Below, in pieces: positions 1,182-35,414 of a stretch of 64,000 nt of DNA. Location of the stretch: contig MEDJ01000019.1 of assembly GCA_001724025.1 (NCBI GenBank), forward strand, positions 94,359 through 158,358. The letters run 5' to 3'. This stretch comes from Acidobacteria bacterium SCN 69-37. GTDB taxonomy: Bacteria; Acidobacteriota; Vicinamibacteria; Vicinamibacterales; SCN-69-37. The stretch's first letter is position 1. Each line of letters opens with the position of its first letter. The position numbers and the translations under genes are program-made. The notes beneath the pieces are model-generated. The model was not told the DNA's origin, made no database searches, and was given only the letters and a program-made list of their open reading frames with translations.

Positions 1182-1189
1182 CGCCCACC

Positions 1190-2929: not shown

Positions 2930-3306
2930 TAGCAGCAACCCGATCCGGGCGTACAACACTCTTCCGACAGGCGAATCCGCGGCTTGGTCGGCGAGGCGCT
3001 CGCGGCGAGCCCGGCTGCGCGCGCCAGCGCCTCCCGTCGTGGATACGCGCCGTGGCCGAGCTCCTCACCATTGACGAGCACGATCGGCAGACACGTCGTG
3101 CCCTCGCGCTGCATGAGATCCAGCACATGCGTGTTCGAGACGAATGGCTGCGGATCCTGGGAAAGGTTGTGCCGCACGACGGTCACGCCCTGAGCGGTCA
3201 GCCACTCGACATCGGCCGCGAACGCGGCAAGCAGCGGATCCACACTTGGACCACACACCCCGGTCGAGCAACACATGGGCGGGTCGAAGACATCGATATG
3301 CGTCAT
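2929..3306 (-). CDS. arsD: Arsenic metallochaperone / operon regulator ArsD
   Basis: N-terminus MTHIDVFDPPMCCSTGVCG carries the ArsD-type Cys triad. The C-terminus is Cys-rich. It lies directly upstream of arsA. Confidence 0.9.
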   Translation of the reverse strand: MTHIDVFDPPMCCSTGVCGPSVDPLLAAFAADVEWLTAQGVTVVRHNLSQDPQPFVSNTHVLDLMQREGTTCLPIVLVNGEELGHGAYPRREALARAAGLAASASPTKPRIRLSEECCTPGSGCC

Positions 3307-3319
3307 ATGAAACCCCTTC

Positions 3320-3697
3320 CTACACGGCCTCGAGGAGTGCCTTCAACCGCTTCAACGCCGACGGGACGATGCAGTAGCCGACGCGCGGACCGTTCTCGTT
3401 CGCTTGAACGAGCCCGGCGCCACGCAGGATGCGGAGATGCTCCGACACCGTTGACTGCGCCAGCGGCAATTCGTCCACGATGTGACTGCACATCCGGGCC
3501 TCTTTCTTGGCGAGCATCCGCAGGATCCTCACCCGCGTGGGATGGGCAATCGCCTTGGCAAACGCGGCGAGCTCGTCGTCGGCGGCTGGTCCATCGACCG
3601 GAACGGTCAGCAGCTCCACGGTTTGCCCCTCGGGTGCGCAGCAGACCGGCTCGTCGGACTCGCAAGCCGGAGTGTTGGGAATGGTCTTGGTAGTCAT
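3320..3697 (-). CDS. arsR: ArsR/SmtB-family metalloregulator
   Basis: Winged-HTH signature AHPTRVRILRML...STVSEHLRILRGAGLV. N-terminal CC pair (EPVCCAPEG). First gene of the ars operon. Confidence 0.85.
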   Translation of the reverse strand: MTTKTIPNTPACESDEPVCCAPEGQTVELLTVPVDGPAADDELAAFAKAIAHPTRVRILRMLAKKEARMCSHIVDELPLAQSTVSEHLRILRGAGLVQANENGPRVGYCIVPSALKRLKALLEAV

Positions 3698-3718
3698 CGT
3701 TAATCGTCGATTAACGAT
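3696..3718. promoter_or_regulatory. Perfect 11-1-11 palindrome overlapping the arsR start codon (candidate ArsR operator)
   Basis: ATCGTTAATCG-T-CGATTAACGAT read directly from the sequence. The arsR ATG (3697-3695, minus strand) lies inside the left arm. Confidence 0.5.
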
Positions 3719-3785
3719 ATCACTGCCAAAGACCTGGCGTCAACTCCTGTAAGTCATTGATTGGATGAGGCGTTAGGGGCGGCCT

Positions 3786-4439
3786 TCAGCGGTGCTCGTT
3801 GGTAGGGGCAGTCCGGGGAGAGGGCTCGCTTCCTGCTCGCTCAGAAGGCTCCTGACAAGTGCCGCACTGATCCGTGCGGGCTTCGTAGCTGATGATGCCT
3901 CCACGTCGGTCGAGTGCGATTCGGCAACACTCGTCCAACGCCGTGCGCAGGTGCAATCGAGCACGCTGGACGCGGCTCTTCATCCCGGACACCGAGAGCC
4001 CAAACCTTTCGGCGGCTTCGACCTGGGTGACGCCCTCGAACTCGACGAGACGCAAAGCTTCCTGGTCAGCGGACCCCAGCGTGCTGATGAGAGGCTTCAA
4101 GCAGGCGCTGAGTTCCTGTAATGCGCTGCCGTCGGCATCGTCATCCGGCGCGTCCGCGATCTGCGGAGCGAAATCGACCGGCGCCCCCGCCGGCACCTCT
4201 CGCGTATGCGACGGTGCGCGGTAGTAGTCGGCGATGACTCGGCGGGTCGTCTGATAGACCCACGCGTGGAGCCGGTCCGAATCGCGAAGCGTCGGCAATG
4301 CGCGGTGCACCTGAAGGAACACCCGCTGCACGATGTCATCGACGTCGGCCGGCTGCCGAACGCGCCGGCCGACGAACCCACGAATATTGGCGCGCAGCTC
4401 AGTCCACACGCCTTCCGTGCTCAGCGACACGTCGGGCAT
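3786..4439 (-). CDS. ECF (sigma-70 family) sigma factor with Cys-rich C-terminal tail (SigZ-like)
   Basis: Region 2 (DDIVQRVFLQVHRALPTL...WVYQTTRRVIADYYR) and region 4 (ALRLVEFEGVTQVEAAERFGLSVSGMKSRVQRAR). The tail is ECCRIALD...QCGTCQ. It starts 7 nt after the arsM stop. Confidence 0.8.
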   Translation of the reverse strand: MPDVSLSTEGVWTELRANIRGFVGRRVRQPADVDDIVQRVFLQVHRALPTLRDSDRLHAWVYQTTRRVIADYYRAPSHTREVPAGAPVDFAPQIADAPDDDADGSALQELSACLKPLISTLGSADQEALRLVEFEGVTQVEAAERFGLSVSGMKSRVQRARLHLRTALDECCRIALDRRGGIISYEARTDQCGTCQEPSERAGSEPSPRTAPTNEHR

Positions 4440-4445
4440 TCTACG

Positions 4446-5249
4446 TCACCCGTTGCTCCCTGTTGCGCGGGGCTTGGTCGCCCGGATCAGCGCTGACGCC
4501 ACGAGCGTTTCGGCACCCGGCGACCAGCCTTGCACCAGCGCATCGCTGTTGGTCTTCAGATCCACGCGAATGCTCTCGAATCCGGCACCACGAAGCATCC
4601 CTTTGACGTCAGCGATGAGTGCGGCGCCGGAGACGCAACCTGCGTACGCGTCGAGATCGTTGCGGACCGCCGCTGGAATCTCCCTGAGCGCGACGATGTC
4701 GGAGATCGCCAAGCGCCCGCCTGGGGCGAGCACACGGTACGCCTCGCGGAAGACGGCTGGCTTGTCGGTTGACAGATTGATCACGCAGTTCGACATGATC
4801 ACGTCGACGGTCTCATCCGCCACTGGCAGGTGCTCGATCTCTCCGAGCCGGAACTCGACGTTGCGCAGGTCGGTCTTCAAAATGTTCCCACGCGCCTTCG
4901 TGATCATCTCGGGCGTCATATCCACGCCAATCACGGAGCCCGACGTACCTACCTGCCGGGCCGCGAGGAACGCATCGAAGCCGGCACCGCTTCCGAGGTC
5001 GAGGACTCGCTCGCCAGGCTGCAGTTCGGCGATAGCCTGCGGGTTGCCGCATCCCAGGCCCAGATCCGATCCTTCAGGGGCGCTCTGCCGTTCATCCTCC
5101 GAATAGCCGAGGGCACTCGAATTCGGCTGTTCGCCCGGGCCACAACAGCCCGAGGTGCCGCAGCAACCCGAGGTTCGCTGTTCTGATGCGATCCGCCCAT
5201 ACGTCTCTCGAACTGCAGCCTTTACCGTCTCGGTGTCCACGCTCGTCAT
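4446..5249 (-). CDS. arsM: Arsenite S-adenosylmethionine methyltransferase
   Basis: SAM motif [11 protein letters not shown] and N-terminal Cys pairs ([12 protein letters not shown]). NCVINL and GGRLAISD are typical of ArsM/UbiE-type enzymes. Start set at ATG 5249, which follows AGGAGG. Confidence 0.85.
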
Positions 5250-5434
5250 CACGTCCTCCTGGCGATCTCCGTCGCTCCTGCCTGTATAGACGGGGCCCCT
5301 TCCGAAAGGACGCACGGTCGTGCCCAATCGCCACATCCCTGCTCGACCGTTTGCGTCCCACAGCAAACCTCCCCGTCATACGGATCAGAACGCTGGTGAT
5401 CGACCTCGCCGGCCACAGCCAGGAGGCACTCAAG

Positions 5435-6500: not shown

Positions 6501-8342
6501 TCAAGTGCCTCGTGCTTTCTCTTGGTCAACAGTGCCGGGCTCGTCGCGGCCTGTTCCACCATAGTCACCGTTTCGAAAGCGTTGCATCGCCGCTTCGGCT
6601 ATCACATCGAATCGCCCCTTAATAATGGCGCGGACGGCCTCAGTATTGAAGCGGTCGCCATTCGGCGCCATGAACTCCTCCAGCGAGATCATCCTCGACG
6701 GATGTGCCCGGTGGAACGACTTCAGGATCGAGTCCAGGCGCTCGCCTGTCACCTGAATCACAGCAGATAACCGATCGAGCGCGTCGGCTGTCATGACTGT
6801 GAGCGGCCACACTTTCGGATGGCCTACCTTCAGTCGTGGTTCCATGGAACGCAGGAAACGATCGGACAATACACGCATGACGGGACCGGCGTTGATGATC
6901 GGGTCCTGAACAACCAACACGGGATATATGTCCTCCACTGCGCGAAGGCCTCGAATGGAACTCTTCGCGGTTTGATTGAACCATACGGCCTCGATTCCGC
7001 TGCGGAGCTGATAGAGTCCTCCGTGCTTGACGTGCCCGAATTTCTGCGTCAGCCCCCTGAAGAACGCGGCTGGCTCCCCAGAGTACTTGTCGCCAGACTT
7101 GATGAATGTCCCCTTGCATTCGATCACGATGGCCGCGCCATCTCGAACAGCGACGGCATCCCAGAGCTCTTCGTTTGAAGATTCGTCGAGCGGGTTGGGG
7201 ACAAAGAACCAGTTTCTGGCCCGAAATATTTTGTCGAGACGGTCGAGGCAATAGGCCTCGAACGCGGACCCCCATGTACTGGTGAATTGCTTGCGACGCG
7301 CCATTGTGTCGAGCGCATTCATCACGCTCCAGAAGGCGTGCGCGCCGAGTCGCTCTACCAAGAGCGCGACGTCAATGCATAGCGCGTCTCCGTTGGGCAT
7401 GATCCAGAGCGGCGAGGCGCGGAACGGAGTCAAGTCGAACAGCGTCGTGCGGGAAAAACTCTCGATCTTGAGCCTGTCAGGCAGTTCGGCGAACGGCGTA
7501 CTAAGCGAGGCTAGCGCCTGAAGCAGCACTTCCTTCGATATCGTCTCGTGTGGCTGATCAGGGTTTAGATAGCCGCGTGACCGATCCGCCATCAGTTGCT
7601 TGAAGGTCACGGCAGACCAGAATGAGAACAGAAGGAAGCTGAGATCCAGCCAAGCTTCCATGCTGAACCCTGTTGTGAACAATGCGATGCGTTCGAGTCG
7701 TTCGAGATCCGCAGGATCCGCTGCGGCGGCCGGGAGCCTGCGGGTGAATAGGTCATGGACGCGAGGCCACGAAATCTCGATCGCTGGGGGATTTTCGGTC
7801 TCGTGCATTGGCCCCATCTGCGTTGCCAACCAGAGCGCAGTGGCTTTCTTGGACGGCGGCTCCTCGACACGGAACAGCCCATTCGTGAGAAACAACAAGT
7901 CGCCGATCACGTCGAAGTCGTCCCGCGTTTGAAGACGATTCCCGCCATCCGCGCGGCCCCAGGTGGCAACCAAACGAGTGACAAACAGGAGCTGCGTCCG
8001 ATGCAACAACGGTCGATTCAGCAGTGATGCGGCACCGAACTGTGCCTGAAGAGTGCGAAGCAACTTCTCGCTGATGACCTCGCGAATCAACCAGGTCTGC
8101 ACATCGCGAACCGGCTCGACGTTGTTGGTGAATTCCGTCTCGATCGTCGCGGACGACAGGAGCAGATTCAGAAACCCGAGAAAGTGCAGAGCCTCGTCGC
8201 GGTTCAACGTCGAGGCAAGCCCCGATAGCTCGGCGTAGTCGACGCTGCGACCGGGGAAGACCTCCTCCGGGGAAATGAAGGTTCTGATGATCTGCGGCAC
8301 GAAGTCACCTTGTTTCGTTCGACGATAGCCCGCACACTTCAA
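6501..8342 (-). CDS. Hypothetical 613-aa protein with PD-(D/E)xK-like motif in the C-terminal half
   Basis: Long ORF with no competing ORF. The motif string is GSAFEAY...ELWDAVAVRDGAAIVIECKG (E ... D ... E-x-K). No family recognised. It lies 95 nt downstream of the DUF6527 gene on the same strand. Confidence 0.55.
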   Translation of the reverse strand: MKCAGYRRTKQGDFVPQIIRTFISPEEVFPGRSVDYAELSGLASTLNRDEALHFLGFLNLLLSSATIETEFTNNVEPVRDVQTWLIREVISEKLLRTLQAQFGAASLLNRPLLHRTQLLFVTRLVATWGRADGGNRLQTRDDFDVIGDLLFLTNGLFRVEEPPSKKATALWLATQMGPMHETENPPAIEISWPRVHDLFTRRLPAAAADPADLERLERIALFTTGFSMEAWLDLSFLLFSFWSAVTFKQLMADRSRGYLNPDQPHETISKEVLLQALASLSTPFAELPDRLKIESFSRTTLFDLTPFRASPLWIMPNGDALCIDVALLVERLGAHAFWSVMNALDTMARRKQFTSTWGSAFEAYCLDRLDKIFRARNWFFVPNPLDESSNEELWDAVAVRDGAAIVIECKGTFIKSGDKYSGEPAAFFRGLTQKFGHVKHGGLYQLRSGIEAVWFNQTAKSSIRGLRAVEDIYPVLVVQDPIINAGPVMRVLSDRFLRSMEPRLKVGHPKVWPLTVMTADALDRLSAVIQVTGERLDSILKSFHRAHPSRMISLEEFMAPNGDRFNTEAVRAIIKGRFDVIAEAAMQRFRNGDYGGTGRDEPGTVDQEKARGT

Positions 8343-8437: not shown

Positions 8438-8833
8438 CTAACCGGCAAAAAGTCGACTCAGCCACTTCCAGAGTCGCCGCCACCTGCCGACGGAGTAGGG
8501 TTTGGCGTAGTAGGAGCGACGCCGCTCCTGCTCCTGTGCGCGACCGGCGGCGATCTGTTCGGATGACCATGCCTCGCCCCAAACGACTTCGCCATTGCGG
8601 AACCAATAGTGCGAACGACAGCCTTGCTGCCAGTTGCCAACGGAAGGCCACAGGCTGGGTCCCTGGGGATCCTCTTCAACCGACCATTCCGTGGGTCCAA
8701 GTGGAGTGCGGATCTTTGCACCGCATCCGCACGCGCACAGATGCGCCGCCGTAAGGAACTCTTCGGAGACGTACAGAATGCCCGGCTGCAGCTCCTTGGG
8801 CATGTAGTGGACCCGCTGCAGGACGAACTTCAC
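8438..8833 (-). CDS. DUF6527-like Cys-rich (putative Zn-binding) protein
   Basis: CACGCGAKIRTPLGPTEW...PSVGNWQQGCRSHYWF matches my recollection of the DUF6527 pattern. The GTG start overlaps the E1 stop (GTGA). Confidence 0.7.
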   Translation of the reverse strand: MKFVLQRVHYMPKELQPGILYVSEEFLTAAHLCACGCGAKIRTPLGPTEWSVEEDPQGPSLWPSVGNWQQGCRSHYWFRNGEVVWGEAWSSEQIAAGRAQEQERRRSYYAKPYSVGRWRRLWKWLSRLFAG

Positions 8834-10017
8834 GGCAATTCCGATTCACTGCTGATTTTCATATCGCCGATGCCAAACAACAGATTGTAGAGGGGCGTTT
8901 CCTCGAAGTAGAAGCCGCGCAGCTGCTTGAACCTGATGACCGCAAGGCAGGCGTTGAGTGCATTCAGTTCAGCAATCTGAATGTTCGCCCGATAGACGTC
9001 GTCCGGCCGGTCGGCGAGATCGACCAACTGCTTGTCCCGAACGATCTGCGCATTGGCGGCGGAGAAATACGTAACGCGCACCATGCCATTCAGAGCGCCA
9101 CGTTTTCGGTTGAGGCCCATGCCGACATCGATGAAAGGGATCTTCTTCGCGATGAGAGCGTCGATGATCCCCGCGCGAGCAGAACCCTTGTCGACGCAGA
9201 CGAATGCGAACGTGACTCCGTCGAGGTCATCGGCTGATTGCGGATCGATGAATTTGGGCGCTGTTGACAGACCGTGACGAAAATTCTCATAGCGAGCCTG
9301 GTAAACGACACTCTTGTGCTTGCCGAACTCTGCTTCCTCGACGCGACCGGGAGAGCGAAATGCGTTATGCACGTAGTAGAAATCCAGATCGAACGAGCGA
9401 ATCTCGCGCACCGGAGTCTTGACGATGAAGTCCAGCACGTAGGCACCCGTGCCGCCGAGACCAATCACGGCGATGATGTCGTCCTTGAACCTCGCGACGA
9501 GATCCGTGATTTCCGCTCTGCTCGTCAGCGTGTCATGGAACCTAAAAATGCTATCGGGCGCCACCTGTTCAACCGAGCGAAACGTGTAGGGGTTGGCGCC
9601 GTGCCTTTCAATGGCTGGACCGGAAATAATGGCGACGTAACTCTCGATCTTGTCGAAGAAATCAGCAAATGCTCCGGTCGCCTTCGGTTTGTTGGAGAAG
9701 GACCGCTGAACGACCACGTCGTTACAGGCGTCGCTTAGAGTGACCTGACAAGTACCGCCGCCGAGATTCGGGATCGGATTCCCATCGAGACCGTGCGGCA
9801 CGGATCCGGCGAAGAAGACCTGATGGTCATCCTGCCTGACTCGATCCAGATCGAGGAACACGAGTTTCGCAACCAGAGCGCCAGTCTGAAGTGCGCCGGC
9901 CGCGTCGAGATACGGAATGTCGCGCACGACGAGATGGTTCGTGTCGAACGCGACCGCGTGGCCCTTTTCGACGAGCCGGCGGAGGTCGTCGTTACGACTG
10001 ACCAGTCTCTGAAACAT
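8830..10017 (-). CDS. ThiF/E1-like adenylyltransferase with ~170-aa N-terminal (possibly E2-like) extension
   Basis: Rossmann nucleotide loop IAVIGLGGTGAYVLDF. The N-terminal extension contains HQVFFAGSVPHGLDGNPIPNLGGGTCQ. It is translationally coupled to both neighbours. Confidence 0.8.
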   Translation of the reverse strand: MFQRLVSRNDDLRRLVEKGHAVAFDTNHLVVRDIPYLDAAGALQTGALVAKLVFLDLDRVRQDDHQVFFAGSVPHGLDGNPIPNLGGGTCQVTLSDACNDVVVQRSFSNKPKATGAFADFFDKIESYVAIISGPAIERHGANPYTFRSVEQVAPDSIFRFHDTLTSRAEITDLVARFKDDIIAVIGLGGTGAYVLDFIVKTPVREIRSFDLDFYYVHNAFRSPGRVEEAEFGKHKSVVYQARYENFRHGLSTAPKFIDPQSADDLDGVTFAFVCVDKGSARAGIIDALIAKKIPFIDVGMGLNRKRGALNGMVRVTYFSAANAQIVRDKQLVDLADRPDDVYRANIQIAELNALNACLAVIRFKQLRGFYFEETPLYNLLFGIGDMKISSESELP

Positions 10018-10243
10018 TGAAGATCATCCCGTCCTTCACCTTGACCGACCCGCCGGGCGAGAGGATGCCCTCCGGCTTGTTGCCGTGACCCCGGGTGTAC
10101 GTCACGGCGTACGTGATCTCCGGGTGCTGAGCGTAGTCAGGGACCTCCAGAGTGACGACCTCCGCGTAAGTGATCTCCTCCTTCGGCCACTCGTGCGGCG
10201 TGCCTTCCACAATGATCGTGACTGTCTTCTTGTCGGCTGCCAT
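9992..10243 (-). CDS. Multiubiquitin-type single beta-grasp (Ubl) protein
   Basis: KKTVTIIVEGTPHEW...VTYTRGHGNKPEGILSPGGSVKVKDGMIFNVSETGQS. Start set at ATG 10243, which follows AAGGGAGAA. The upstream ATG at 10270 would lie inside the operator. Confidence 0.7.
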   Translation of the reverse strand: MAADKKTVTIIVEGTPHEWPKEEITYAEVVTLEVPDYAQHPEITYAVTYTRGHGNKPEGILSPGGSVKVKDGMIFNVSETGQS

Positions 10244-10268: not shown

Positions 10269-10315
10269 ATCGCATTTTTGCGATGTCTTTGTCAACGCAA
10301 TTTTGCGATATTCAG
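10269..10315 (-). promoter_or_regulatory. Promoter/operator element, copy A (twin of 26210-26255)
   Basis: Minus strand reads CTGAATATCGCAAAATTGCG-TTGACA-AAGAC-ATCGCAAAAATGCGAT. It contains two palindromes (CGCAA-AA-TTGCG and ATCGCA-AAAA-TGCGAT) around a TTGACA -35 box. It ends 26 nt before the Ubl start codon. Confidence 0.55.
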
Positions 10316-10405: not shown

Positions 10406-11539
10406 TTAGTTAAAGGCGGTGAGCACAGCACGCTCGGCTTCGGCTGGCGGGATTCTCTCCTGCTCGAGCATCCATGGCCCTGCCACGACCGCGTTCAAAG
10501 CCTCTCGCTCGACATCGGTCAGATGCGAGTGGCGGGCGGATGCGTCTCGTTGACCCGGTAACGCAAGATGCCTCCATCGACACCAGGCGGTGTGGTCCAT
10601 CAGCAGGCTTCGGACTTGCGGAAAGCTTGATCGGAGCCCCGAGAGAATGCCGTACCCGGCTTCATCGCAATCACCCCAATAGACGATCTGAGTCGACGCC
10701 ATCCAACGGCACGCCGGGAGTATCGATGCCGCCTTGCCTGACCCAAAGATGGCTAACGTGCGAGGGATCTCGGGCAGGCACAGAAACACGTCCCGATTCT
10801 CGACTACGAGTACACGCTCCGGGACCCATGAGATATTCGCAAAACTTGGCGCCGGCACGGAGCAATCATCGACTGGCCAGCCGACGCGTTCCCGAAGCCG
10901 CTGATCCAAGAAGCGAAAGCGAACCGGCGCCGGATCTGCCAAAAGGTGAAAGCGCTCGGCGAACGTCGCGCCCTCTACGTTGACGCGATCGCCCAGCACC
11001 ACATCGAGCAGCTCGCGAAGAATCCCGGCGTGTTCTTCAACGAACTTCGTCCCAGCTGGCAGCGGTATCTGGCGCGCGAAACACCGTGGCGTTGGATTGG
11101 CATCAAAGTATGCGCAGACAGCAACCAGAGCTGGCCACTCTTCAAGGTAGTCAACGATACGGTGCGCTCTCGCGCGCACCCATGGCTCCAGCGCCGGACA
11201 CGACTCCCGCGCTCTACGAACCGCGTCGTGGAACGCTTCAAACTCGCGCGAGCGGCCCAAAGCCGCCGCCATGTCATCGGCTGACCCAAATGTGATTCGC
11301 ATCGGCCAGCGTTGACGTCCCCACTTGCGCGTTTGAATTTCCTGCCATTCGATTTGCCATTCATGATGGGTCGCCGCCAACGCCTCGATGTCGCGCTTCA
11401 ATTCCGCAAAGTCGGCGGTGGTCCGGGGACGGCCGAACGGAATCTGCAGAGGAAACAGACTCTCGCCAGCTGCCTCCGCGCGCAGGACAGCTGGCCACCT
11501 GCTTAGCGCTCCTTCGAGAATATCTTCTGGCTTTAGCAT
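10406..11539 (-). CDS. jetD: Wadjet JetD (DUF3322 + Toprim/DUF2220 nuclease subunit)
   Basis: Toprim-like VLVVENRDVF and YWGDCDEAGYGIL. Last gene of the jetABCD order. Confidence 0.85.
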   Translation of the reverse strand: MLKPEDILEGALSRWPAVLRAEAAGESLFPLQIPFGRPRTTADFAELKRDIEALAATHHEWQIEWQEIQTRKWGRQRWPMRITFGSADDMAAALGRSREFEAFHDAVRRARESCPALEPWVRARAHRIVDYLEEWPALVAVCAYFDANPTPRCFARQIPLPAGTKFVEEHAGILRELLDVVLGDRVNVEGATFAERFHLLADPAPVRFRFLDQRLRERVGWPVDDCSVPAPSFANISWVPERVLVVENRDVFLCLPEIPRTLAIFGSGKAASILPACRWMASTQIVYWGDCDEAGYGILSGLRSSFPQVRSLLMDHTAWCRWRHLALPGQRDASARHSHLTDVEREALNAVVAGPWMLEQERIPPAEAERAVLTAFN

Positions 11540-11556
11540 GCAGACCTTGCGGGCCC

Positions 11557-14500
11557 TTAGGCAGGAGACGCTGGCGATGGCGGGGACTGCAACGCTTCTG
11601 ACTGCAGGCCGTTGGCTTCAGGTCCAGCCTCAACTTGCTCCCGAGTCAGCGCAATCAGCCGCGAACTGTTCCCTGACGGGTTCGAAGCCAAGTGAATCGT
11701 GCGAACAAACGGCACGGCGAGCTTCGCTTTCGCGTCGAATGGTCCGACGATGAGCAGCTGGAATCCAAGCTGAGAGAACAGCTGCATCGCGCGAGTGGAA
11801 TTCGATTCGTCCGTGCGCGAGAACGCTTCATCAATAACCACGAGGCGGAAGTTGGGAGCGTCCTGAGCAGCCGTGGACAGACCGTACTGCGCGGACAAAG
11901 CCGATGCGAGAATCGTGAAGGCGAGCTTCGCCTTTTGTCCTCCAGATTTGCCCGTCGTCGCGGCGTAGTAGTTGACCTCGACGTCGTCCGACCTACGCAA
12001 CTCTCGGACGCCAGCGGCAAACCATGTACGAACGTCCGTCACGCGTTGCGTCCCCTCAGGATCGCGTTGGAACTGTTCCAGGAGCAGGCGGACACGCTCG
12101 AAGATTCGCAGGCGCTCATCCGGTGCCGGCGCGATGCCATGTTCAAAACAGTCGCGCAAAGACCGGCGAAACTCAGCGACCTCATGTCCAGGGCGGCTCA
12201 CCAACCGCAGTTGGACGTATGTGTCGTCGGCGTAATCGATACCGCGTAGAGCCTCATTGATCTCCTCTATTCGGCCCTCGATCGCCTCCTGATGCTCCTC
12301 AAGACGGCGATTGAGCATCAACAGGTCACCTACGAGGTTTTCGTTCAGGTAGTGTTCGAACCGTTCCCTATGACGCGGTAGGTCTTCCTCCTCGATGCGA
12401 TGAAGTACGGCGGCGAAACTGTCGGCGTAGGCGCGGCCCACTTCAAGCGTTTGGCGGAAGTCAGGAAACTGACCTAGGAATTCGCTCATGCCCGCGACCA
12501 TCTTCTCGACGGCTTCGTTCACTCGACGCTGTTCATTGCTGATGCGCCCCTGCAGGCTCTGATGGGCGGAATGTGTGAGCTGATCGGCGTTCTCGAGTGT
12601 GAGGGGAGGCAGGCCTGCGGTGATATCGGCAAAGGCCGCCTCCAACCCGTCGTGATCGAAGCCGCTCAAGTCAGCAAGTTGCTGCTCACGGTCGGAGGTG
12701 CGACGTTGACAAGCTTCCAGCCGGTCGCGCACACGTCCGAGTTCCCCGTCGCGTTCACGCAGGTCATCCTCCCCGGCCTGGATGGCAGTATCAATATTCC
12801 GCAACCGTTCCTGGAGAGCTCGAAGTTCTTTCGAGCTCCGCTCTAAGAGGTCTTGCTCGGTCCGTAACCGCATGACCTCGTGGAGCCAGTGCTCAGGATC
12901 TATCTCAATAAAATCACGGATCGCCAACAGCTCGCGGGCGGCGCTCGCACGTTCCCGCGCTGCGCCCGCGCTCCGACCTGCCGCTGTGGCGGCGTTGGCT
13001 TCGGCTAGGGCTCGTTCTTCCGCTTCGCGAATCTGAAGGCGGAGGGCGGCGATCTTGCGGTCCGTCGACCAGCCGAGAATTCTGGCACTGTAATCGTCGA
13101 CGCGCCTGCCATCATCCTTGACATGCCGAGTGCCTTCACGAATTAGGCCCTCGCGCGTGAGACCGCGGTCCACGCCTTCGAGTTCCACAATTGACGCGCA
13201 ACATCGATGATTAAATCGGCGCACTAGCTCATTCGCCACCCATAGATGCAGCGGATGGTCTATCCGAAATTCAAGCCGCCCCGGCACGCGATCGTTCGAC
13301 AAGCTCGGTGGTCCGACATGTTGATCCGGCACACGATGAAAGGTGAGACGCAGGCCGAGCAGCGTGGAGTTCACGAACTGGGCCGCCGGCCTGTACAAAT
13401 GTTCAGGGACCAAGAGGGACAACCCAAAGCCGCGAAGTAGGCGTTCAATCGCGCCGGTCCAATCCTCGTACGTGTTTCGAACCTCTATCAGCTCACCCGC
13501 GAAAGGCATCGCCTCAGTGCCCACCCCGACTACCTGCGCGATGCGGGCACGAACTGCCAGAAACTCTCGAGGAATATTCACGCGATGGCGTTCGACACTT
13601 TCGAGTTCGGCGGCCTTTTCAACGCGTACCTCAAGTGCCAATTCCTGAGCGTGTCGTCTGGCGGCACGCAGCTCGTCCGCCTCGCTCGCCGCGACGCTTT
13701 CCACGCGCTCGCGTTCCTCCCATCCAACGCGAGCACCGACGAAAGCTGCGGCGTCAGCCAATGAAGAAATCGCGGCAAGCAGCTGCGCCGCAGGTTCGAC
13801 ACGCGTGCGGCGATGCTGCGCGTTCAGTCGCGCTTGTTCGGCGTGGTGCAGTTCGCGCTCGATGGCTTGGAGGCGCGGCCCAACGTCAGTCTGTGCGATA
13901 GCGGCATTGACATCGTCGCGTTCACGTCGGTGGTCGGCTAGACGCGAAGCGACCATTGCGCGCGCGGCCTCTGACGATGCGACCACGGTCGCGAGTTCAA
14001 TGGCATGGGCTCGAAGCAGTGCCAAGTGGCGGCTCGCGAAGTAGGGGATTGCAAGCTCCTGCAGCTGTCTCCAGACCTCGATCCGCTGCTCACCGTCGGA
14101 GATGCGACGACCGCGTTCGGCTACGGGACCGAGTAGGGCAATCTGACGTTCAGCGCGCTCGATCGCTGCCCAGCAATCGAGGAGCGTCCTGTAATGGGGC
14201 TGGACGGTATCGCGGATAAACGAGAATGTGTCAGCGGCCGGCAACATGAACTGCCGAACGAATGCGTCGATGTCGCTGACCTCCTTCATGCCGATCGCCC
14301 GGTTGAACACTTCAAGCGCCTTGTCGCCTGGAATATGCAGCAGACTGCGCATCCTTTCCGCGTAGGCGGCGAAGCTGTCCTCGACCTGCCAACCATTACG
14401 GCGGGCCGCCCGTCGGATTTCACTCGTGTTGGTATGTCCTTCGATCAGGTCGCTCAAACTTCGGCGACCTTGCGCCACCGCGTAAACCTCGCGAACCTGC

Positions 14501-14940
14501 TCTTCGTGCTCCCAAAGGACCTGTGCAAGCGTCGCTGAAAGCTGACGCTGACCGTCCGTGAACACCGCCGCGATTGCGCTGAGGGCCCCGGCCTCGCGAA
14601 GATGCTGCGTCGTAGGAGCAGTTGAATCGACGGTGCTGGAGCTCGCCCAAGCGCCTCGAACATACGAACGCCGCGTGCGATCGCGCCCGCCTGGGCGACG
14701 ACCGTCGCCGGACGCATCGTTGTAGTTCAGGATCCGGGGTGGTACGAGCAACGTTCGTAACGCATCGATGGCGGTGGACTTTCCTGAGCCATTGTCGCCG
14801 ACGAGCAAAGCCCAGCCACCACGCGGCTCAAGCGTCTGCGCTTGGCCATGGAAGGTCCCCCAATTCCACAGTTCCAGCCGCTCCAGTCGAAAGCCGGACT
14901 CCATGTGGGGACGAGTGTCCTCAAACTCCTCGTTCGACAT
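11557..14940 (-). CDS. jetC: Wadjet JetC (SMC/MukB-like ATPase)
   Basis: 1127 aa. N-terminal FRLERLELWNWGTFHG...LLVGDNGSGKST, a long coiled-coil middle, and C-terminal KLAFTILASAL...LVVIDEAF (signature motif and Walker B). An alternative start at ATG 14904 would remove the 20-nt overlap with jetB. Confidence 0.85.
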   Translation of the reverse strand: MSNEEFEDTRPHMESGFRLERLELWNWGTFHGQAQTLEPRGGWALLVGDNGSGKSTAIDALRTLLVPPRILNYNDASGDGRRPGGRDRTRRSYVRGAWASSSTVDSTAPTTQHLREAGALSAIAAVFTDGQRQLSATLAQVLWEHEEQVREVYAVAQGRRSLSDLIEGHTNTSEIRRAARRNGWQVEDSFAAYAERMRSLLHIPGDKALEVFNRAIGMKEVSDIDAFVRQFMLPAADTFSFIRDTVQPHYRTLLDCWAAIERAERQIALLGPVAERGRRISDGEQRIEVWRQLQELAIPYFASRHLALLRAHAIELATVVASSEAARAMVASRLADHRRERDDVNAAIAQTDVGPRLQAIERELHHAEQARLNAQHRRTRVEPAAQLLAAISSLADAAAFVGARVGWEERERVESVAASEADELRAARRHAQELALEVRVEKAAELESVERHRVNIPREFLAVRARIAQVVGVGTEAMPFAGELIEVRNTYEDWTGAIERLLRGFGLSLLVPEHLYRPAAQFVNSTLLGLRLTFHRVPDQHVGPPSLSNDRVPGRLEFRIDHPLHLWVANELVRRFNHRCCASIVELEGVDRGLTREGLIREGTRHVKDDGRRVDDYSARILGWSTDRKIAALRLQIREAEERALAEANAATAAGRSAGAARERASAARELLAIRDFIEIDPEHWLHEVMRLRTEQDLLERSSKELRALQERLRNIDTAIQAGEDDLRERDGELGRVRDRLEACQRRTSDREQQLADLSGFDHDGLEAAFADITAGLPPLTLENADQLTHSAHQSLQGRISNEQRRVNEAVEKMVAGMSEFLGQFPDFRQTLEVGRAYADSFAAVLHRIEEEDLPRHRERFEHYLNENLVGDLLMLNRRLEEHQEAIEGRIEEINEALRGIDYADDTYVQLRLVSRPGHEVAEFRRSLRDCFEHGIAPAPDERLRIFERVRLLLEQFQRDPEGTQRVTDVRTWFAAGVRELRRSDDVEVNYYAATTGKSGGQKAKLAFTILASALSAQYGLSTAAQDAPNFRLVVIDEAFSRTDESNSTRAMQLFSQLGFQLLIVGPFDAKAKLAVPFVRTIHLASNPSGNSSRLIALTREQVEAGPEANGLQSEALQSPPSPASPA

Positions 14941-15499
14941 GATTCGTGAGCCGGCTTCTCACTTCCTCCAGTTCCGCGGGGCCGAAACGAGCTTTCAGGA
15001 TTCGCATTACCTCGAAGGTCTCTGCCTCCGGGGGTCCAAAGGCTCTCAGAAACGCCAACTCCTCGAGGCGGCCGATGGCAGTATCGATTCTCCTGATATC
15101 TCGAATCTGGTTATTCGTTTCACGCACGAACTGGCTGACCAGCTCACGCAGTTGCTGCCGCGTCAGAACCAGCCTAGTTGAGTCTCCGGCGGACGCATCG
15201 AAACGGGCCAGTTCTTCGCGCAAGCAGACCAGGAGCAGAGTAGCCGTGTATCCGAGTGACTGTCGGCGGCCGATTCGCGGCACCGACTCCCCACCCTCGA
15301 CTTCGATTTGGCGCAAGAATGCATAGCCCTCAGCTTCATCGACTACGACCTCCTGCCCAATCTGCCGAAAGTAGTGCGCGATTGCGTCACGCTCTCCTCG
15401 CAGCGCCTCCCACAGCGACTCATCTTCTCGGTAGATTGGTTCGAGTAGTAGTCGGGCCAAGACAAACGAGCGCGACGCGAACAGTGAGTGTGTATCCAT
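14921..15499 (-). CDS. jetB: Wadjet JetB (DUF4194, kleisin-associated)
   Basis: 192 aa, located between jetA and jetC. Sequence LLLEPIYREDESLWEALRGERDAIAHYFRQIG...YTATLLLVCLRE is typical of DUF4194. Confidence 0.8.
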   Translation of the reverse strand: MDTHSLFASRSFVLARLLLEPIYREDESLWEALRGERDAIAHYFRQIGQEVVVDEAEGYAFLRQIEVEGGESVPRIGRRQSLGYTATLLLVCLREELARFDASAGDSTRLVLTRQQLRELVSQFVRETNNQIRDIRRIDTAIGRLEELAFLRAFGPPEAETFEVMRILKARFGPAELEEVRSRLTNHVERGV

Positions 15500-15507
15500 G
15501 AGTAGCC

Positions 15508-16968
15508 CTACTGCGCACGTGTAAACAGGACTTCAGGCACCCGCCACAGCTCGTCCAAACCGGCTCCAGTCACGATCTGCACCTCGGCAAACTGGTCACC
15601 CGGGACGTAGTGTTGCGCATCCTGCATGGCGACGACGAGATAGCCCACAACTTCCAGGATGCCTTCGCGCGGTGGGAATCGTTGGAGAACCTGCGACAGC
15701 AGAACGGACTCTGTGGCTACGAGGCATGAACGCACTTGCTCGCGAAGCCTGGTCAGATTCAAATCCACCAACGCACGAAAGCGGTTCACCATTTCCCAAT
15801 CCAGTCCCTGAGCGGCAAATGTGAGGTCGTCTGTAACCTGACCCGCTGCGTCGGGCTGCCAGAACGGTCGACTGAACGTGGTAAACGCTTCCGGCGGCCC
15901 AGCAAGATTGAAGAAATCATCCTCAGGCGGCGGCGAAGCGCGACAGACGAGCGCTAACCGCTGCGTCTCTCGTATTAACTCACGAAGACGCCTATCCTCG
16001 CCTGTGGCTGCACTCTCAAGCGCTCGTCGCAACGTCGCCGCCATTCGCTCGTTCGAGCGCACGACCCGCTCTCCTTCGACCAGCAGTCGGCTTGAGAGTC
16101 GGTCGAGGAGCCGATTGGCTCGTAACCCTTCGTCGATCGCGTCCATCCGGTACACTTGACGCGTCAACTCTCGCCATCGTTGTTGCCGTTCGGGCGACGA
16201 CAGCAAGTTCCAGAACGCGTAGAAGCTTTGACCTTGAGACGAATCCTTCAGCGCGGCGTGAGTGTCAAGAAGCTGACCGACAATGCGGCCCTTTGTGGCC
16301 CCAGGCTTGGTCTGAGCCTCCGCTAGTGCCCGCGCGACGTCCTTGAAGTTCTCCTCAAGCTGCCGAAAGTCGCCGGCGAGTCCGCGTGCCAGATCAAGGG
16401 CGTTCGCGAATCGTTCAGTCAACTGAACGGCCGTATAGGCCTCGGCAGTGTGAGTCTGTTCGATGGAGTCGATCTGCGCCTGTAGGGCAGCCTGCTGCGC
16501 GCGTAAAGCTGCCACGCGTCGGCTTGCATCGGGCGTCGAGAACAAGACGATCTCTTCGAGTTGACGGAAGATCAGCTCCAGTCGAGATTCGGCACCGACA
16601 AACGGCCGCGCCTGTAAGTCCTCTAACCACTGCATCGCGCGCTCTGCGGCCGTGGTGAGCTCGAAGACAGGTTCCTCTGCTTCATTGCTATATAGCTTCT
16701 TGAGGAGCAGTTGCTCGTTGCCGCACCAGGCGGCCAGGTATTCGGCTGCGGTCTGAGCGTACGCACCTGGCCTTTGAGCACGAGCCTCGTCGAGAAAATT
16801 GTCCAAGCGAGCGCGGAGGTGCGATTCCGGGACGGCTATTGCGTGATGCTCTTTGAAGGCTCGGTGGAGGAAGGTTAGCGTGAGCGCAGCATTCGGACTC
16901 CGCAGCAGCCGGACCGCGGCATGGTCCATCAGTCTTTGCGTCTCGATAAAATCCCACGCTGTGTTCAT
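15508..16968 (-). CDS. jetA: Wadjet JetA (DUF3375, kleisin-like)
   Basis: 486 aa. N-terminal AAVRLLRSPNAALTLTFLHRAFKE... fits the DUF3375 pattern. It lies at the head of the jetABCD order. Confidence 0.85.
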   Translation of the reverse strand: MNTAWDFIETQRLMDHAAVRLLRSPNAALTLTFLHRAFKEHHAIAVPESHLRARLDNFLDEARAQRPGAYAQTAAEYLAAWCGNEQLLLKKLYSNEAEEPVFELTTAAERAMQWLEDLQARPFVGAESRLELIFRQLEEIVLFSTPDASRRVAALRAQQAALQAQIDSIEQTHTAEAYTAVQLTERFANALDLARGLAGDFRQLEENFKDVARALAEAQTKPGATKGRIVGQLLDTHAALKDSSQGQSFYAFWNLLSSPERQQRWRELTRQVYRMDAIDEGLRANRLLDRLSSRLLVEGERVVRSNERMAATLRRALESAATGEDRRLRELIRETQRLALVCRASPPPEDDFFNLAGPPEAFTTFSRPFWQPDAAGQVTDDLTFAAQGLDWEMVNRFRALVDLNLTRLREQVRSCLVATESVLLSQVLQRFPPREGILEVVGYLVVAMQDAQHYVPGDQFAEVQIVTGAGLDELWRVPEVLFTRAQ

Positions 16969-20064: not shown

Positions 20065-20066
20065 CG

Positions 20067-21224: not shown

Positions 21225-21226
21225 GG

Positions 21227-23927: not shown

Positions 23928-23944
23928 CAACGCAACTCGCTCCC

Positions 23945-24214
23945 TTACGCAGCTGTTCCCACAATGCGAATTCCAGCGCGGACTTGCCCGGCGCGCCCGC
24001 CGAGATCCACGACGACATGCCAATGGCCAATCGAAGGCGGACGCATTTGGACAGGCGACTTCGTCGCCCACCCTCCGTAGTACGTGAAACGGCCACCGTT
24101 TCGATACGATGAGAATGCGAGATCATCCAGCAGCATGACATTCGCTTGACCATCGAGCGTTACGACGACGACGTTGTCGGGGCCACCATTGAAATCCGTG
24201 TGAAGAAAGTTCAT
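23945..24214 (-). CDS. DUF1883-like small protein
   Basis: 89 aa. Sequence ANVMLLDDLAFSSYRNGGRFTYYGGWATKSPVQMRPPSIGHWHVVVD matches my recollection of DUF1883. Its ATG overlaps the ImmA stop (ATGA). Confidence 0.55.
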   Translation of the reverse strand: MNFLHTDFNGGPDNVVVVTLDGQANVMLLDDLAFSSYRNGGRFTYYGGWATKSPVQMRPPSIGHWHVVVDLGGRAGQVRAGIRIVGTAA

Positions 24215-25137
24215 TCCTCACCTCCTTCGAACCCAGTGATCTGAATACGGCGATGCGGAATCACGACTCGAGTTTCGGTGACTCGTCGCTCCTCCACGAA
24301 GAGTGTCAGGAGATAGTGCTGATTGTTGAATGACCACGCACGCACTTCATGGCGATCACTCCTGGCATCAACCAAACCGAGACGAAATTCGGCAACCTTT
24401 CCGCCCTTCTTGTAGCTCGCATGGCTATCGACGGCCACACGAAGTGACTCGGCGGAACTGTCTGGAAACAGTCTGGAGAACCGTTCGGACGGAACGAAGT
24501 GGCGCCATCGATGTTCCTGGTCATCGGGTTGCTGCGCCCACAGCGGCGTGCTGACCAGCATCGCCATCGCCAGATCTGGCCCTTGTTCGACGTAACGCCT
24601 TAGCGTCGTAGTCAGGGATGCTCGGTAACGCTTCGCGAGTGACTTGACGGATTCGATCGTCGGCACCACATCCCGTGCGTCCTTTGTGAATCGGTCGCCG
24701 AGGAACAACAGCCGACCAGCCGCGTAGTTGGCCTCGGCCTCCAGATCCGCCTGATAGGCGGGATCGAGCGTCTGAGCGGTGTCCCCGAAGAAGAACGGTT
24801 TGTGCCATGGGAGCAGCCGATGCCCAGTCTCGTGGCATGAGGCCCACGGATGCTTGATTCTCGGTAACTCCTGATCGATACAGATGCGGTTCTCGTCAAA
24901 GAGAAGCACGGCTTGCAGACGGACCTTGTTGATGATGTCGACGAGTTTGTGGCCCTGGATGCGAAGCTTGTGTTTGGCGCGATCAAGAAAACCTGGATTG
25001 GCCAGGTCGTAGTAATCGCGATGGAGTTGAACGTGCTGGAGCAGCTGTTCCACGGAGAGCGGAGGCTCTGTGAGACCGGCGTCCCGCAGCGTCGCCGCAG
25101 CAATCCGTTCGATTTCCGCGCGTGTCGCTCGGTCCAT
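24211..25137 (-). CDS. ImmA/IrrE-family zinc metallopeptidase
   Basis: HExxH motif in WASCHETGHRLLPWH, with a downstream EANYAAGRLLF segment typical of the DUF955/ImmA fold. It follows an XRE gene. Confidence 0.8.
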   Translation of the reverse strand: MDRATRAEIERIAAATLRDAGLTEPPLSVEQLLQHVQLHRDYYDLANPGFLDRAKHKLRIQGHKLVDIINKVRLQAVLLFDENRICIDQELPRIKHPWASCHETGHRLLPWHKPFFFGDTAQTLDPAYQADLEAEANYAAGRLLFLGDRFTKDARDVVPTIESVKSLAKRYRASLTTTLRRYVEQGPDLAMAMLVSTPLWAQQPDDQEHRWRHFVPSERFSRLFPDSSAESLRVAVDSHASYKKGGKVAEFRLGLVDARSDRHEVRAWSFNNQHYLLTLFVEERRVTETRVVIPHRRIQITGFEGGEE

Positions 25138-25154: not shown

Positions 25155-25820
25155 TTAGCGATCTGATCGAAGAAACCCAACAAACTCATCCAACACGCGC
25201 TGTTCTTCCTTCGTCAACTTTGAAAAGGAGTTTGACTGTGCCGCGAACCGTGCGGCGTGTTGTCGCAAGTCTTCTGGCACCTCACGGATGGCGCCGGCGA
25301 GAACTGCCAGCTTTCGGTCAGGCACCCCGAAGAACTCACTGAGGCGGTGCAGTGTCAACGGTGATGGACGATACGCGGGACTTCGCTCGAGAGCCACGAG
25401 CTCAGTGCGATCGATCTTGGTCTTCTCCGCAAGGTCATCGATCGACAATCCGCGAGACCGGCGAAGCATCTGGACGACGCGGTGAAATGCCTCGCGAATC
25501 TCCAATTCCTCGGGCTCGCGGGCGGTCATGACGACCGTGAGCTTCTGATTGAGCGCTGTCGCAATCCGTTCCAGCACCGAAAGAGACCGCCCCTCGTAGT
25601 CGGCGTCTTCGAGACGACTGATCACGGACTGCGTTGTCCCGATGAGTTCGGCTAGTTGCTGCTGTGAGAGGCCCGCTGCATTCCTCATCTCGTGAATCAA
25701 GCGGGCCACTTCAGCATTGACTCGTTCTTCTTGAAGCGCAGCCTTGCGCTCTGGATCATCCTTCACGTACCGACCGTGAAGGATCCTGACCGCATCCCGC
25801 GTCTTGTCCTTCTTGGTCAT
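25155..25820 (-). CDS. XRE-family regulator with two HTH modules
   Basis: HTH 1 is LSQQQLAELIGTTQSVISRLE and HTH 2 is LSIDDLAEKTKIDRTELVALE. It lies between the toxin-like gene and the ImmA gene. Confidence 0.8.
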   Translation of the reverse strand: MTKKDKTRDAVRILHGRYVKDDPERKAALQEERVNAEVARLIHEMRNAAGLSQQQLAELIGTTQSVISRLEDADYEGRSLSVLERIATALNQKLTVVMTAREPEELEIREAFHRVVQMLRRSRGLSIDDLAEKTKIDRTELVALERSPAYRPSPLTLHRLSEFFGVPDRKLAVLAGAIREVPEDLRQHAARFAAQSNSFSKLTKEEQRVLDEFVGFLRSDR

Positions 25821-25823: not shown

Positions 25824-26186
25824 TCACTCCTCATAGGTATGTCGCTTGGGGTTTTGAATGAACCGAGTTCTGTTACCGACCGCGCGATCGATCTCAGCCG
25901 GCGGAACGACGTCCTCCTTGGTACATCCGTGGCTCAAGATCGCGCGACCTTCATGGAAGAAATAGAGAATCCGGTGATGCACGTTGCCATGTCGCACCCG
26001 CAGTTCATAGATGTCATCGCGCAAATAATCCGCTTCTGGACGTCTCAATTCGTGTCCGCGTTCCGCGAGCCGTTCGATGCGAACGGTACACTTGTCGCGA
26101 GCCTTGACTTGGAGAGCGTCCATCCACGCCAGTAGCGGCGATGAACCATCCTCGGCGGCAAAGATCACAACCTCCGTCTGGGGCAC
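25824..26186 (-). CDS. Gp49/HigB-like (RelE/ParE superfamily) toxin-like protein
   Basis: 120 aa. Sequence LRVRHGNVHHRILYFFHEGRAILSHGCTKE is typical of the phage Gp49 (DUF891) family. GTG start. Confidence 0.7.
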   Translation of the reverse strand: MPQTEVVIFAAEDGSSPLLAWMDALQVKARDKCTVRIERLAERGHELRRPEADYLRDDIYELRVRHGNVHHRILYFFHEGRAILSHGCTKEDVVPPAEIDRAVGNRTRFIQNPKRHTYEE

Positions 26187-26209: not shown

Positions 26210-26255
26210 ATCGCATTTTTGCTATGTGTTGTCAACTCAATTTTGCGATACTGAG
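26210..26255 (-). promoter_or_regulatory. Promoter/operator element, copy B (twin of 10269-10315)
   Basis: Minus strand reads CTCAGTATCGCAAAATTGAG-TTGACA-ACAC-ATAGCAAAAATGCGAT, then AGT completes a GATAGT -10-like hexamer 17 nt after TTGACA. It ends 24 nt before the GTG start of the toxin-like gene. Confidence 0.55.
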
Positions 26256-30662: not shown

Positions 30663-30680
30663 ATTCATGGGAGGTGTTGC

Positions 30681-31481: not shown

Positions 31482-31484
31482 GTC

Positions 31485-32765: not shown

Positions 32766-32778
32766 ACGGGAGGGACTC

Positions 32779-33555: not shown

Positions 33556-33581
33556 CCATCGCTCAAGGAATGGGGGACATC

Positions 33582-34364: not shown

Positions 34365-34382
34365 AAAGTCCGGAGGCCCGTC

Positions 34383-35216: not shown

Positions 35217-35227
35217 AGGAACACGTT

Positions 35228-35404: not shown

Positions 35405-35414
35405 GGGGTGCATC

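Follow-up and report, generated by a model that had tools for sequence, protein, structure and literature searches.

The minus-strand operon bubA-bubBD-bubE in the 64,000-nucleotide stretch of DNA analysed here (the window) is an unexceptional example of a Type II Bub operon (formerly 6E.2/DUF6527). We are highly confident that the locus is best explained as a Type II Bub operon in which a ubiquitin-like protein (Ubl) would be conjugated by oxyester chemistry, BubE would act as the protease and a CapH-like protein would provide regulation. The operon consists of three overlapping ORFs, encoding a Multi_ubiq Ubl, a fusion of DUF6791 and ThiF domains, and a DUF6527 protein:

bubA, 9992..10243, minus strand: 83-aa ubiquitin-like protein with a single β-grasp domain (Ubl_1 type), ending ...ETGQS; Pfam Multi_ubiq 2.3e-18
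bubBD, 8830..10017, minus strand: 395-aa protein with an E2-like domain at about residues 1-165 (DUF6791 3.8e-40) and an E1 adenylation domain at about residues 170-395 (ThiF 3.1e-08)
bubE, 8438..8833, minus strand: 131-aa predicted serine protease; Pfam DUF6527 4.5e-24

Gene content and identity of the operon

The gene set and gene order, read from ORFs and Pfam domains, are those of the published definition of the Type II operon bubA-bubBD-bubE (Ye et al., bioRxiv 10.1101/2024.11.21.623953). All of the sequence-level features that define the type are found here, comprising Ser108, His65 and Lys110 of the E2-like domain, Arg221, Tyr342, and the C4 zinc site and Ser64/His75 pair of BubE. The arrangement recurs widely: bubA lies just upstream of bubBD on the same strand in 78 of 80 related loci from many phyla, and bubE lies directly downstream of bubBD, again in 78 of the 80. 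The bubA TAA (9992-9994) falls 26 nt within the bubBD ORF, an overlap present in 60/78 related loci, and four bases, GTGA, are common to the bubBD TGA and the bubE GTG. An RBS (AGGGAGA) stands 7 nt upstream of the bubA ATG.

Much of this architecture had been described in a first-pass annotation made by a model from the sequence alone. Its three overlapping minus-strand ORFs, with the 26-nt and GTGA overlaps, were confirmed on the sequence, and the motifs that it quoted (GLGGTGAYVLDF, GGGTC and CACGCG...GCRSHYW) are all present. Its domain calls (β-grasp Ubl, E2-like/E1 fusion, DUF6527) were right: profile HMM searches matched Multi_ubiq, ThiF and DUF6527, and identified the N terminus of the fusion as DUF6791. 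The annotation was also correct that a JAB gene is absent, as Pfam and PADLOC scans found no JAB/JAMM gene among the neighbours scanned. Its statement that the mechanism is uncharacterised has been overtaken, because Bub enzymology, covering the E1, E2 and peptidase chemistry of Type II systems, was published in 2024-2026. PF20137 is now named 'BubE' in precomputed Pfam annotation.

PADLOC 2.0 (2023) was unable to classify the cassette because it has no Bub models and returned only weak E1-E2 matches on BubBD (E of at least 3.4e-04), confined to the beginning of ThiF and to the preceding linker. A downstream 613-aa ORF (6501..8342) was considered as a fourth Bub gene and rejected, since it is absent in 80/80 related loci.

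Predicted conjugation and deconjugation chemistry

BubBD scores 631 bits against NCBIfam NF004803 (cut-off 419) and carries the key residues His65, Ser108, Lys110, G186xGGxG, Asp210, Arg221, Lys235, Asp276 and Tyr342. Across 127 homologues, His65, Arg221 and the crossover-loop Tyr342 are each present in all 127, Ser108 in 126 and Lys110 in 112; GxGGxG, Asp210, Lys235 and Asp276 are also conserved. Arg221, Tyr342 and Ser108 are the window counterparts of R219, Y342 and S106 in E. coli BubBD, in which the R219A, Y342F and S106A substitutions abolish conjugation (Ye et al., bioRxiv 10.1101/2024.11.21.623953). His65 and Lys110 agree with the 'lysine+histidine' pair published for Type II E2 sites.

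These alignments bear on a canonical thioester cascade, in which C90 (of GGGTC) or C98 would serve as the E2 nucleophile and BubA would be trimmed to an internal Gly by some protease. The window copy does have C90, C98 and Gly81, and the first-pass annotation had placed the E2 cysteine in GGGTC. However, the C90 position is variable among the 127 homologues (N, G, E, A or P), and C98 sits inside an insertion found in about 3% of them and missing from 97%; neither BubBD domain holds a conserved Cys. Many BubA proteins carry D, N or V at the position of Gly81, two residues before the end, but 77 of 78 loci keep a terminal Ser, within a T-x-x-S motif directly ahead of the stop codon. Furthermore, E. 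coli BubA, which ends in ...TDKS where the window protein ends in ...TGQS, was conjugated in vitro without processing (Ye et al., bioRxiv 10.1101/2024.11.21.623953). A thioester cascade is largely refuted by this conservation, and we consider it very improbable for the window copy.

On this evidence the directly encoded terminal Ser is the native, conserved end of Type II BubA. The suggestion that an internal Gly must be exposed does not fit this pattern, nor does it fit active E. coli BubA (PDB 9cd2), which also ends in Ser and whose third β-grasp domain is matched by window BubA at E=7.8e-06. For construct design, C-terminal tags or the 'GG' assumption would probably inactivate Type II BubA.

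The AlphaFold2 model of BubBD (pLDDT 89.7) has Citrobacter BubCD structures as its best PDB matches (E ~1e-13), with ThiF and MoeB also among the structural matches. A BubBD profile run against PDB sequences retrieved BubCD at 1e-10; a direct phmmer search of PDB sequences with BubBD found TcdA only, such that BubCD was reached only by profile. The isolated N-terminal domain was also modelled well (pLDDT 88.6, pTM 0.81). Foldseek comparison of this domain, which is predicted to adopt an E2 fold, against the PDB gave nothing significant: the best match was the E2 Atg10 (E=0.076), several other E2s followed at E 0.3-1.1, among them Atg3, UBE2H and a UBC at 0.5-1.1, and Type I BubB chains were absent among the matches listed.

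A ThiF-like E1 domain and structural matches to ThiF and MoeB would also be expected if the locus were a sulfur-carrier or biosynthetic system akin to ThiS/ThiF or MoaD/MoeB, with adenylation and thiocarboxylation of BubA feeding the synthesis of a cofactor or natural product. We give this reading hardly any credence. BubA has no Gly-Gly terminus, a rhodanese domain and a conserved Cys are absent, and BubA always occurs with an E2-like domain and a protease dedicated to it. The genes neighbouring Bub cassettes are not biosynthetic; they comprise defence-operon regulators, integrases, and genes for conjugation and abortive infection.

BubE, in turn, has a C4 zinc site (C33, C35, C37, C72), a Ser64/His75 dyad and a C-terminal tail rich in Trp, Arg and Leu. 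C33, C35, C37 and S64 occur in 80/80 BubE sequences, and C72 and H75 in 79/80. Published work describes DUF6527 (BubE) as a Ser-His protease that clears BubA conjugates and needs both the zinc cysteines and the dyad for peptidase activity; the published activity in vitro is very weak. By analogy with these enzymes, BubE is the predicted deconjugating peptidase of the cassette. The earlier view that the locus has no deubiquitinase gene is therefore superseded, since the peptidase is the DUF6527 protein itself, with dyad and zinc site intact here.

Ye et al. demonstrated the steps of the Bub cycle with homologues from E. coli and Citrobacter, and these steps are transferred here to the window copy from proteins that are ~35-40% identical. 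BubBD, a predicted dimer, would adenylate BubA at the carboxylate of its C-terminal Ser83, using ATP and the ThiF-type domain, without prior processing of BubA. BubA would then form an oxyester on the crossover-loop Tyr342, next an oxyester on Ser108 in the E2-like part of the fusion, helped by Lys110 and His65, and finally be linked to a lysine of a target. BubE, as a zinc-stabilized Ser64/His75 protease, would cut BubA conjugates and so limit or reset the pathway, in this way filling the role of the JAB peptidase in Bil and CBASS systems.

Proposed regulation and genomic setting

Two operator pairs, one at bubA and one 16 kb away at a CapH/CapP-type regulator operon, connect the cassette to a candidate transcriptional switch:

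Operator pair, 10269..10309, minus strand: two 16-bp palindromic sites (ATCGCAAAATTGCGTT, ATCGCAAAAATGCGAT) flanking and overlapping the -35 hexamer TTGACA (10290-10295) of the putative bubA promoter
Second operator pair, 26210..26249, minus strand: the same sites, again set around a TTGACA hexamer, ahead of the regulator operon
Gp49/HigB-like small protein, 25824..26186, minus strand: first gene of the regulator operon; Pfam Gp49 1.1e-15
CapH-like repressor, 25155..25820, minus strand: 221 aa with two XRE-type HTH domains; HTH_3 8.6e-20 (two matched stretches); PADLOC capH 1.5e-15
CapP-like ImmA/IrrE (M78) metallopeptidase, 24211..25137, minus strand: 308 aa with an HExxH motif; Peptidase_M78 2.1e-04, just under the gathering score; PADLOC capP 1.3e-15

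The window contains 5 matches to the operator ATCGCAAAAATGCGAT where 0.33 would be expected, and 0/100 shuffles reached 5. The pair at bubA is conserved with identical spacing in two related contigs, L082 and L086, and L082 has an equivalent pair upstream of its Gp49 gene. These observations bear out the first-pass suggestion of an operator common to the cassette and the neighbouring operon. When sought in 86 loci, the operator was present in L082 and L086 only, indicating that it belongs to the regulator of a sub-lineage and is not a general Bub feature. The putative bubA promoter was missed by a strict sigma-70 scan, its -10 being weak, and the assignment therefore rests on the inter-operator TTGACA and on conservation.

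Given that the operators are shared, the CapH-like protein likely binds both pairs. Encoded 16 kb off, it would repress bubA and its own promoter; DNA damage would then lead the CapP-like protease to cleave the repressor, releasing both promoters. An M78 (CapP-type) peptidase is the largest ORF within ~1.5 kb upstream of bubA in 39/75 loci. The homologue closest to the window's CapP (9.2e-50) adjoins bubA in locus L007; this locus was set aside as a promoter comparison, its promoter region being unrelated to that of the window.

The cassette is cargo of a defence island beside type IV secretion genes, a position that it shares with an SbcCD-like module and Wadjet. Immediately upstream of it is Wadjet JetABCD (10406..16968), in line with the defence-island setting first proposed for the cassette. 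SbcC-(Wadjet)-Bub synteny is also seen in L082 and L086, and at least three independent contigs combine a Bub cassette with SbcCD-like and Wadjet modules.

This setting leaves room for a role other than anti-phage defence. The Bub operon could be a DNA-damage or stress module, or could serve the mobile element, for instance through modification of proteins of the host or the element once induced, together with the co-regulated SbcCD-like and Wadjet modules. We regard such a role as possible but unlikely. It is consistent with a literature in which phage protection has yet to be shown for any Bub operon, with the operator common to a DNA-damage-responsive CapH/CapP-type regulator operon, with the adjoining T4SS genes and with the synteny in L082 and L086; however, Wadjet, abortive-infection genes and CapH/CapP are equally typical of defence islands.

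A more specific proposal, which we offer as speculation and think rather improbable, is that one CapH/CapP-type DNA-damage switch co-induces at least three modules (HerA/SbcCD-like, type I Wadjet and Bub) on a conjugative element through the duplicated operator, and that the Bub target is a component or substrate of these DNA-handling systems or of incoming DNA-associated proteins. If true, co-induction would be the first functional handle on the purpose of Bub. The operator common to the distant CapH/CapP-like operon hints at a setting for the target search, namely DNA damage or foreign DNA.

Comparison with known systems

The Bil (bacterial ISG15-like) system BilABCD is, like the Type II Bub operon in the window, a Ubl/E2/E1 conjugation system of defence islands. 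Bil has a separate Cys-dependent E2 (BilB), a JAB peptidase (BilC) and an IAD-AAD-CYS E1 (BilD), all absent from the cassette, which has no JAB domain or conserved Cys and has only one adenylation domain, fused with its E2-like domain. Type II CBASS Cap2/Cap3 shares with the cassette an E2-E1 fusion and a dedicated deconjugating peptidase. Cap2, however, relies on catalytic cysteines, and the protein that it conjugates is a CD-NTase, not a Ubl; Cap3 is a JAB peptidase. Neither a CD-NTase nor a JAB gene is among the scanned neighbours of the cassette. From ThiS/ThiF and MoaD/MoeB systems the locus is set apart by the terminal Ser of BubA and by neighbours that are regulators, mobile-element genes and defence genes.

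Bub proteins themselves are represented in the PDB by crystal structures of Type I Citrobacter BubCD, BubA and BubB proteins and of E. coli Type II BubA. Type I Bub (6E.1), exemplified by Citrobacter BubAB, BubCD and BubE (PDB 9ea4, 9ea5, 9ea8, 9eae and 9eav), provides the closest solved structure to the window BubBD model in its E1 domain. Both types have a BubE protease and oxyester chemistry through Tyr and Ser. Unlike the cassette, Type I joins its Ubl with the E2 in one protein and its E1 with a JAB peptidase in another, and the Ubl ends in Gly after JAB cleavage, whereas window BubA has a terminal Ser. The Type I E2 site consists of His and Asp, the Type II site of Lys and His.

The nearest system overall is the Type II Bub operon of E. 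coli ZDHYS365 (Ye, Gong, Chambers and Corbett; BubA PDB 9cd2), which has the identical three genes in the same order and is likewise without JAB. The two have in common the catalytic E2 Ser, the crossover-loop Tyr, the adenylation Arg, the BubE zinc site and Ser-His dyad, and the BubA terminal Ser; they are also alike in a mobile-element setting and in an association, putative for the window operon, with a CapH/CapP-type regulator. Window BubA has one β-grasp domain (83 aa) rather than the three of E. coli BubA. The CapH/CapP-like regulator, adjacent in E. coli, lies 16 kb off in the window, where it has two HTH domains, is preceded by a Gp49-like gene and has its operator duplicated at the Bub promoter. 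The locus adds no new chemistry and stands as a compact Bub example with an 83-aa single-domain Ubl.

Operon architecture and family assignment

The ubiquitin-like cassette of the window is a Type II Bub operon, a typical member of a family with its enzymology worked out. The positions, lengths and overlaps of three minus-strand ORFs read by the first-pass annotation were borne out, and Pfam matched each of its domain calls:

9992..10243, minus strand: bubA, ubiquitin-like protein, 83 aa (Multi_ubiq, 2.3e-18)
8830..10017, minus strand: bubBD, E2-like–E1 fusion, 395 aa (DUF6791, 3.8e-40; ThiF, 3.1e-08)
8438..8833, minus strand: bubE, 131 aa (DUF6527, 4.5e-24)

The bubA stop codon falls 26 nt within the bubBD ORF, and the end of bubBD and start of bubE have the four bases GTGA in common. 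Ahead of the 83-aa bubA start lies a ribosome-binding site, AGGGAGA, and gene calls in two related contigs, L082 and L086, give the same 83-aa product. The bubBD fusion belongs to NCBIfam NF004803 (631 bits; cut-off 419), an 'equivalog' family of hypothetical proteins, and PF20137 is already labelled 'BubE' in the contig database's precomputed Pfam annotation. A full-text literature search on DUF6527 led to two Corbett laboratory preprints, in which Bub (bacterial ubiquitination-like) is the new name for the '6E/DUF6527' operons that comparative genomics had predicted before, and a JAB peptidase is 'typically' absent from Type II operons. In a 2026 EMBO J paper the work is cited as already in print (Gong et al. 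2025; Ye et al. 2026).

Scanning one genome per species yielded 80 Bub loci spanning Acidobacteriota, Chloroflexota, Bacteroidota, Pseudomonadota, Verrucomicrobiota, Bacillota and other phyla, with bubA just upstream of bubBD on the same strand in 78 and bubE directly downstream in 78. In 75 loci we examined the largest ORF lying up to about 1.5 kb upstream of bubA: it encoded an M78 (ImmA/IrrE, CapP-type) peptidase in 39, and XRE-type HTH proteins (13 matching HTH_3), WYL proteins (3) or kinases (2) elsewhere. These regulator counts agree with a published census of 544 operons (CapH+CapP 31%, CapW 8%, CapK+CapS 59/544). Downstream genes shared no theme, including integrases, type IV secretion (T4SS) coupling proteins and AbiEii, and none indicated biosynthesis. 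A sulfur-carrier role, under which homologues were expected mainly in sulfur-transfer contexts, is thus ruled out by the neighbours of the related loci.

Conserved residues of BubA, BubBD and BubE

The window BubA is minimal, a single β-grasp domain, a point particular to this lineage. Its gene ends as follows:

9992-9997, minus strand: bubA 3′ end, terminal Ser and stop codon

The last residue is Ser in 77 of 78 related loci and Ala in one, and across L001–L080 Type II BubA ends in T-x-x-S (T-[GDNV]-[QKER]-S) immediately before the stop. In contrast to the terminal Gly of Type I BubA and ubiquitin, Type II BubA has a nearly invariant terminal Ser, whose conservation we found no mention of in the Bub preprint text or supplement. 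E. coli BubA, ending ...VTQTDKS, is conjugated in vitro by BubBD without processing (Ye et al., bioRxiv 10.1101/2024.11.21.623953). The missing Gly-Gly is therefore unproblematic, and the terminal Ser is the predicted native end, ready to activate. Exposure of an internal Gly, previously raised as one option, is not needed: the −3 Gly is commonly replaced by D, N or V among the 78 loci.

Among 1.84 billion representative proteins searched, 1490 were BubBD relatives at E ≤ 0.001, of which 126 full-length sequences (mostly 34–56% identical) were aligned with the window protein.

Conservation of BubBD residues in the 127-sequence alignment
His65: 127/127
Ser108: 126/127
Lys110: 112/127
Arg221: 127/127
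Tyr342: 127/127
G186xGGxG, Asp210, Lys235: conserved

Ser108, Arg221 and Tyr342 are the counterparts of E. coli S106, R219 and Y342, and S106A, R219A and Y342F each abolish conjugation (Ye et al., bioRxiv 10.1101/2024.11.21.623953). His65 and Lys110 fit the 'lysine+histidine' pair that the Corbett laboratory preprints place next to the E2 serine of Type II systems. The E2 cysteine proposed earlier, C90, fails because other members carry N, G, E, A or P at its position. C98 was also rejected, as it sits within an insertion present in about 3% of relatives. The full AlphaFold2 model (pLDDT 89.7) has five Citrobacter BubCD entries as its top PDB matches (E about 1e-13), ahead of UBA5, ThiF, MoeB, MccB and Cap2; BubCD also ranks first by sequence profile (1e-10). 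The isolated N-terminal domain (pLDDT 88.6, pTM 0.81) is modelled as helices, a β-meander and a long helix. Foldseek against the PDB gave it no significant match, the best being the autophagy E2 Atg10 (E = 0.076), followed by Atg3, UBE2H and a UBC at non-significant E of 0.5–1.1.

All 80 BubE sequences have C33, C35 and C37, and 79 have C72, the four forming a predicted C4 zinc site; Ser64 is found in 80 and His75 in 79. Their Citrobacter counterparts are C57/C59/C61/C99, S92 and H102, and S92 and H102 are needed for peptidase activity and in-cell removal of BubA conjugates (Corbett laboratory preprints). The Trp/Arg/Leu-rich C-terminal tail agrees with the hydrophobic extension that the preprints describe for BubE proteins. 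Since these residues are retained, the cassette is predicted to encode its own deconjugating enzyme, BubE. The first-pass annotation was right about the missing JAB gene, as none turned up among the neighbours scanned with Pfam and PADLOC, and mistaken in concluding that there is no deubiquitinase.

A duplicated operator and the surrounding island

The operator previously seen to be shared with a neighbouring defence operon occurs as two pairs of identical spacing, with five matches in the window against 0.33 expected, and the reported adjacency to Wadjet holds:

10269-10309: palindrome ATCGCAAAAATGCGAT and a 2-mismatch copy, flanking a TTGACA hexamer upstream of bubA
26210-26249: second operator pair
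25824-26186, minus strand: Gp49/HigB-like gene (toxin family), first in the operon after this operator
25155-25820, minus strand: CapH-like repressor, 221 aa, two HTH domains (PADLOC capH, 1.5e-15)
Following gene: CapP-like HExxH peptidase, 308 aa (PADLOC capP, 1.3e-15; Pfam M78, 2.1e-04)
Following gene, ahead of the HerA/SbcCD-like module: DUF1883 gene
16987-24071, minus strand: four-gene module between the regulator genes and Wadjet, comprising a 375-aa protein with no matches, a HerA-like ATPase (PADLOC mad8, 1.5e-13; HerA, 1e-06), an SbcD-like phosphoesterase and a 1025-aa SbcC/Rad50-like ATPase (LmuB, 2e-23)
10406..16968: type I Wadjet JetABCD, immediately upstream of bubA
6501-8342, minus strand: 613-aa ORF directly downstream of bubE
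66-5366, minus strand: apparent arsenic-resistance cluster left of the island, judged from translations alone
28128-42133, plus strand: type IV secretion/conjugation genes right of the island

The regulator operon and SbcCD-like genes are followed by Wadjet and then Bub, on one strand throughout. The conjugation set has VirB4/TrbE-, CagX/VirB9-, TrbI/VirB10-, TrbL/VirB6-, TraG/TrwB coupling-protein- and VirB11-like ATPase genes, so an integrative conjugative element or plasmid probably carries the defence island as cargo. On the other side, translations of the arsenic cluster read as an ACR3-type permease, a two-domain ArsA ATPase, ArsD, ArsR, an ECF sigma factor and an ArsM-like methyltransferase. 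For the 613-aa ORF, Pfam and PADLOC gave no match, and NCBIfam gave only a weak one, below threshold, to the anti-phage GapS1 family (1.2e-07; 31 bits, cut-off 320). It is missing from all 80 related Bub loci and is thus a separate cargo gene, not part of the cassette. By eye, it contains a PD-(D/E)xK-like 'D...IECK' motif.

L082, whose BubBD is 85% identical, has both operator pairs, the same regulator operon and the four-gene module, with Bub directly after and without Wadjet. Just upstream of its bubA operator (L082 9540-9620) persists a short stretch like the last ~50 nt of the window jetD (10406-10480), which suggests deletion of Wadjet from an ancestral SbcCD–Wadjet–Bub arrangement. L086 (85% identical) retains SbcC–JetABCD–Bub with the operator pair. 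In the equally close L081, L083 and L084, a short capH and capP pair adjoins bubA, divergently transcribed, and the window-type operator is absent. We infer that the bubA promoter and the promoter of the regulator operon are both under the control of the distant CapH-like repressor. The duplicated operator would thereby link Bub with a distant CapH/CapP-like switch and with the SbcCD-like and Wadjet modules, an arrangement particular to this lineage.

The four-gene module, similar in layout to NurA–HerA–Mre11–Rad50, may represent a defence module not yet described and controlled by the same switch. Whereas relatives with an adjacent regulator carry a single-HTH CapH of 108–120 aa, the CapH-like protein of the window has two HTH domains in 221 aa, and with Gp49 it may form a toxin–antitoxin/CapH hybrid.
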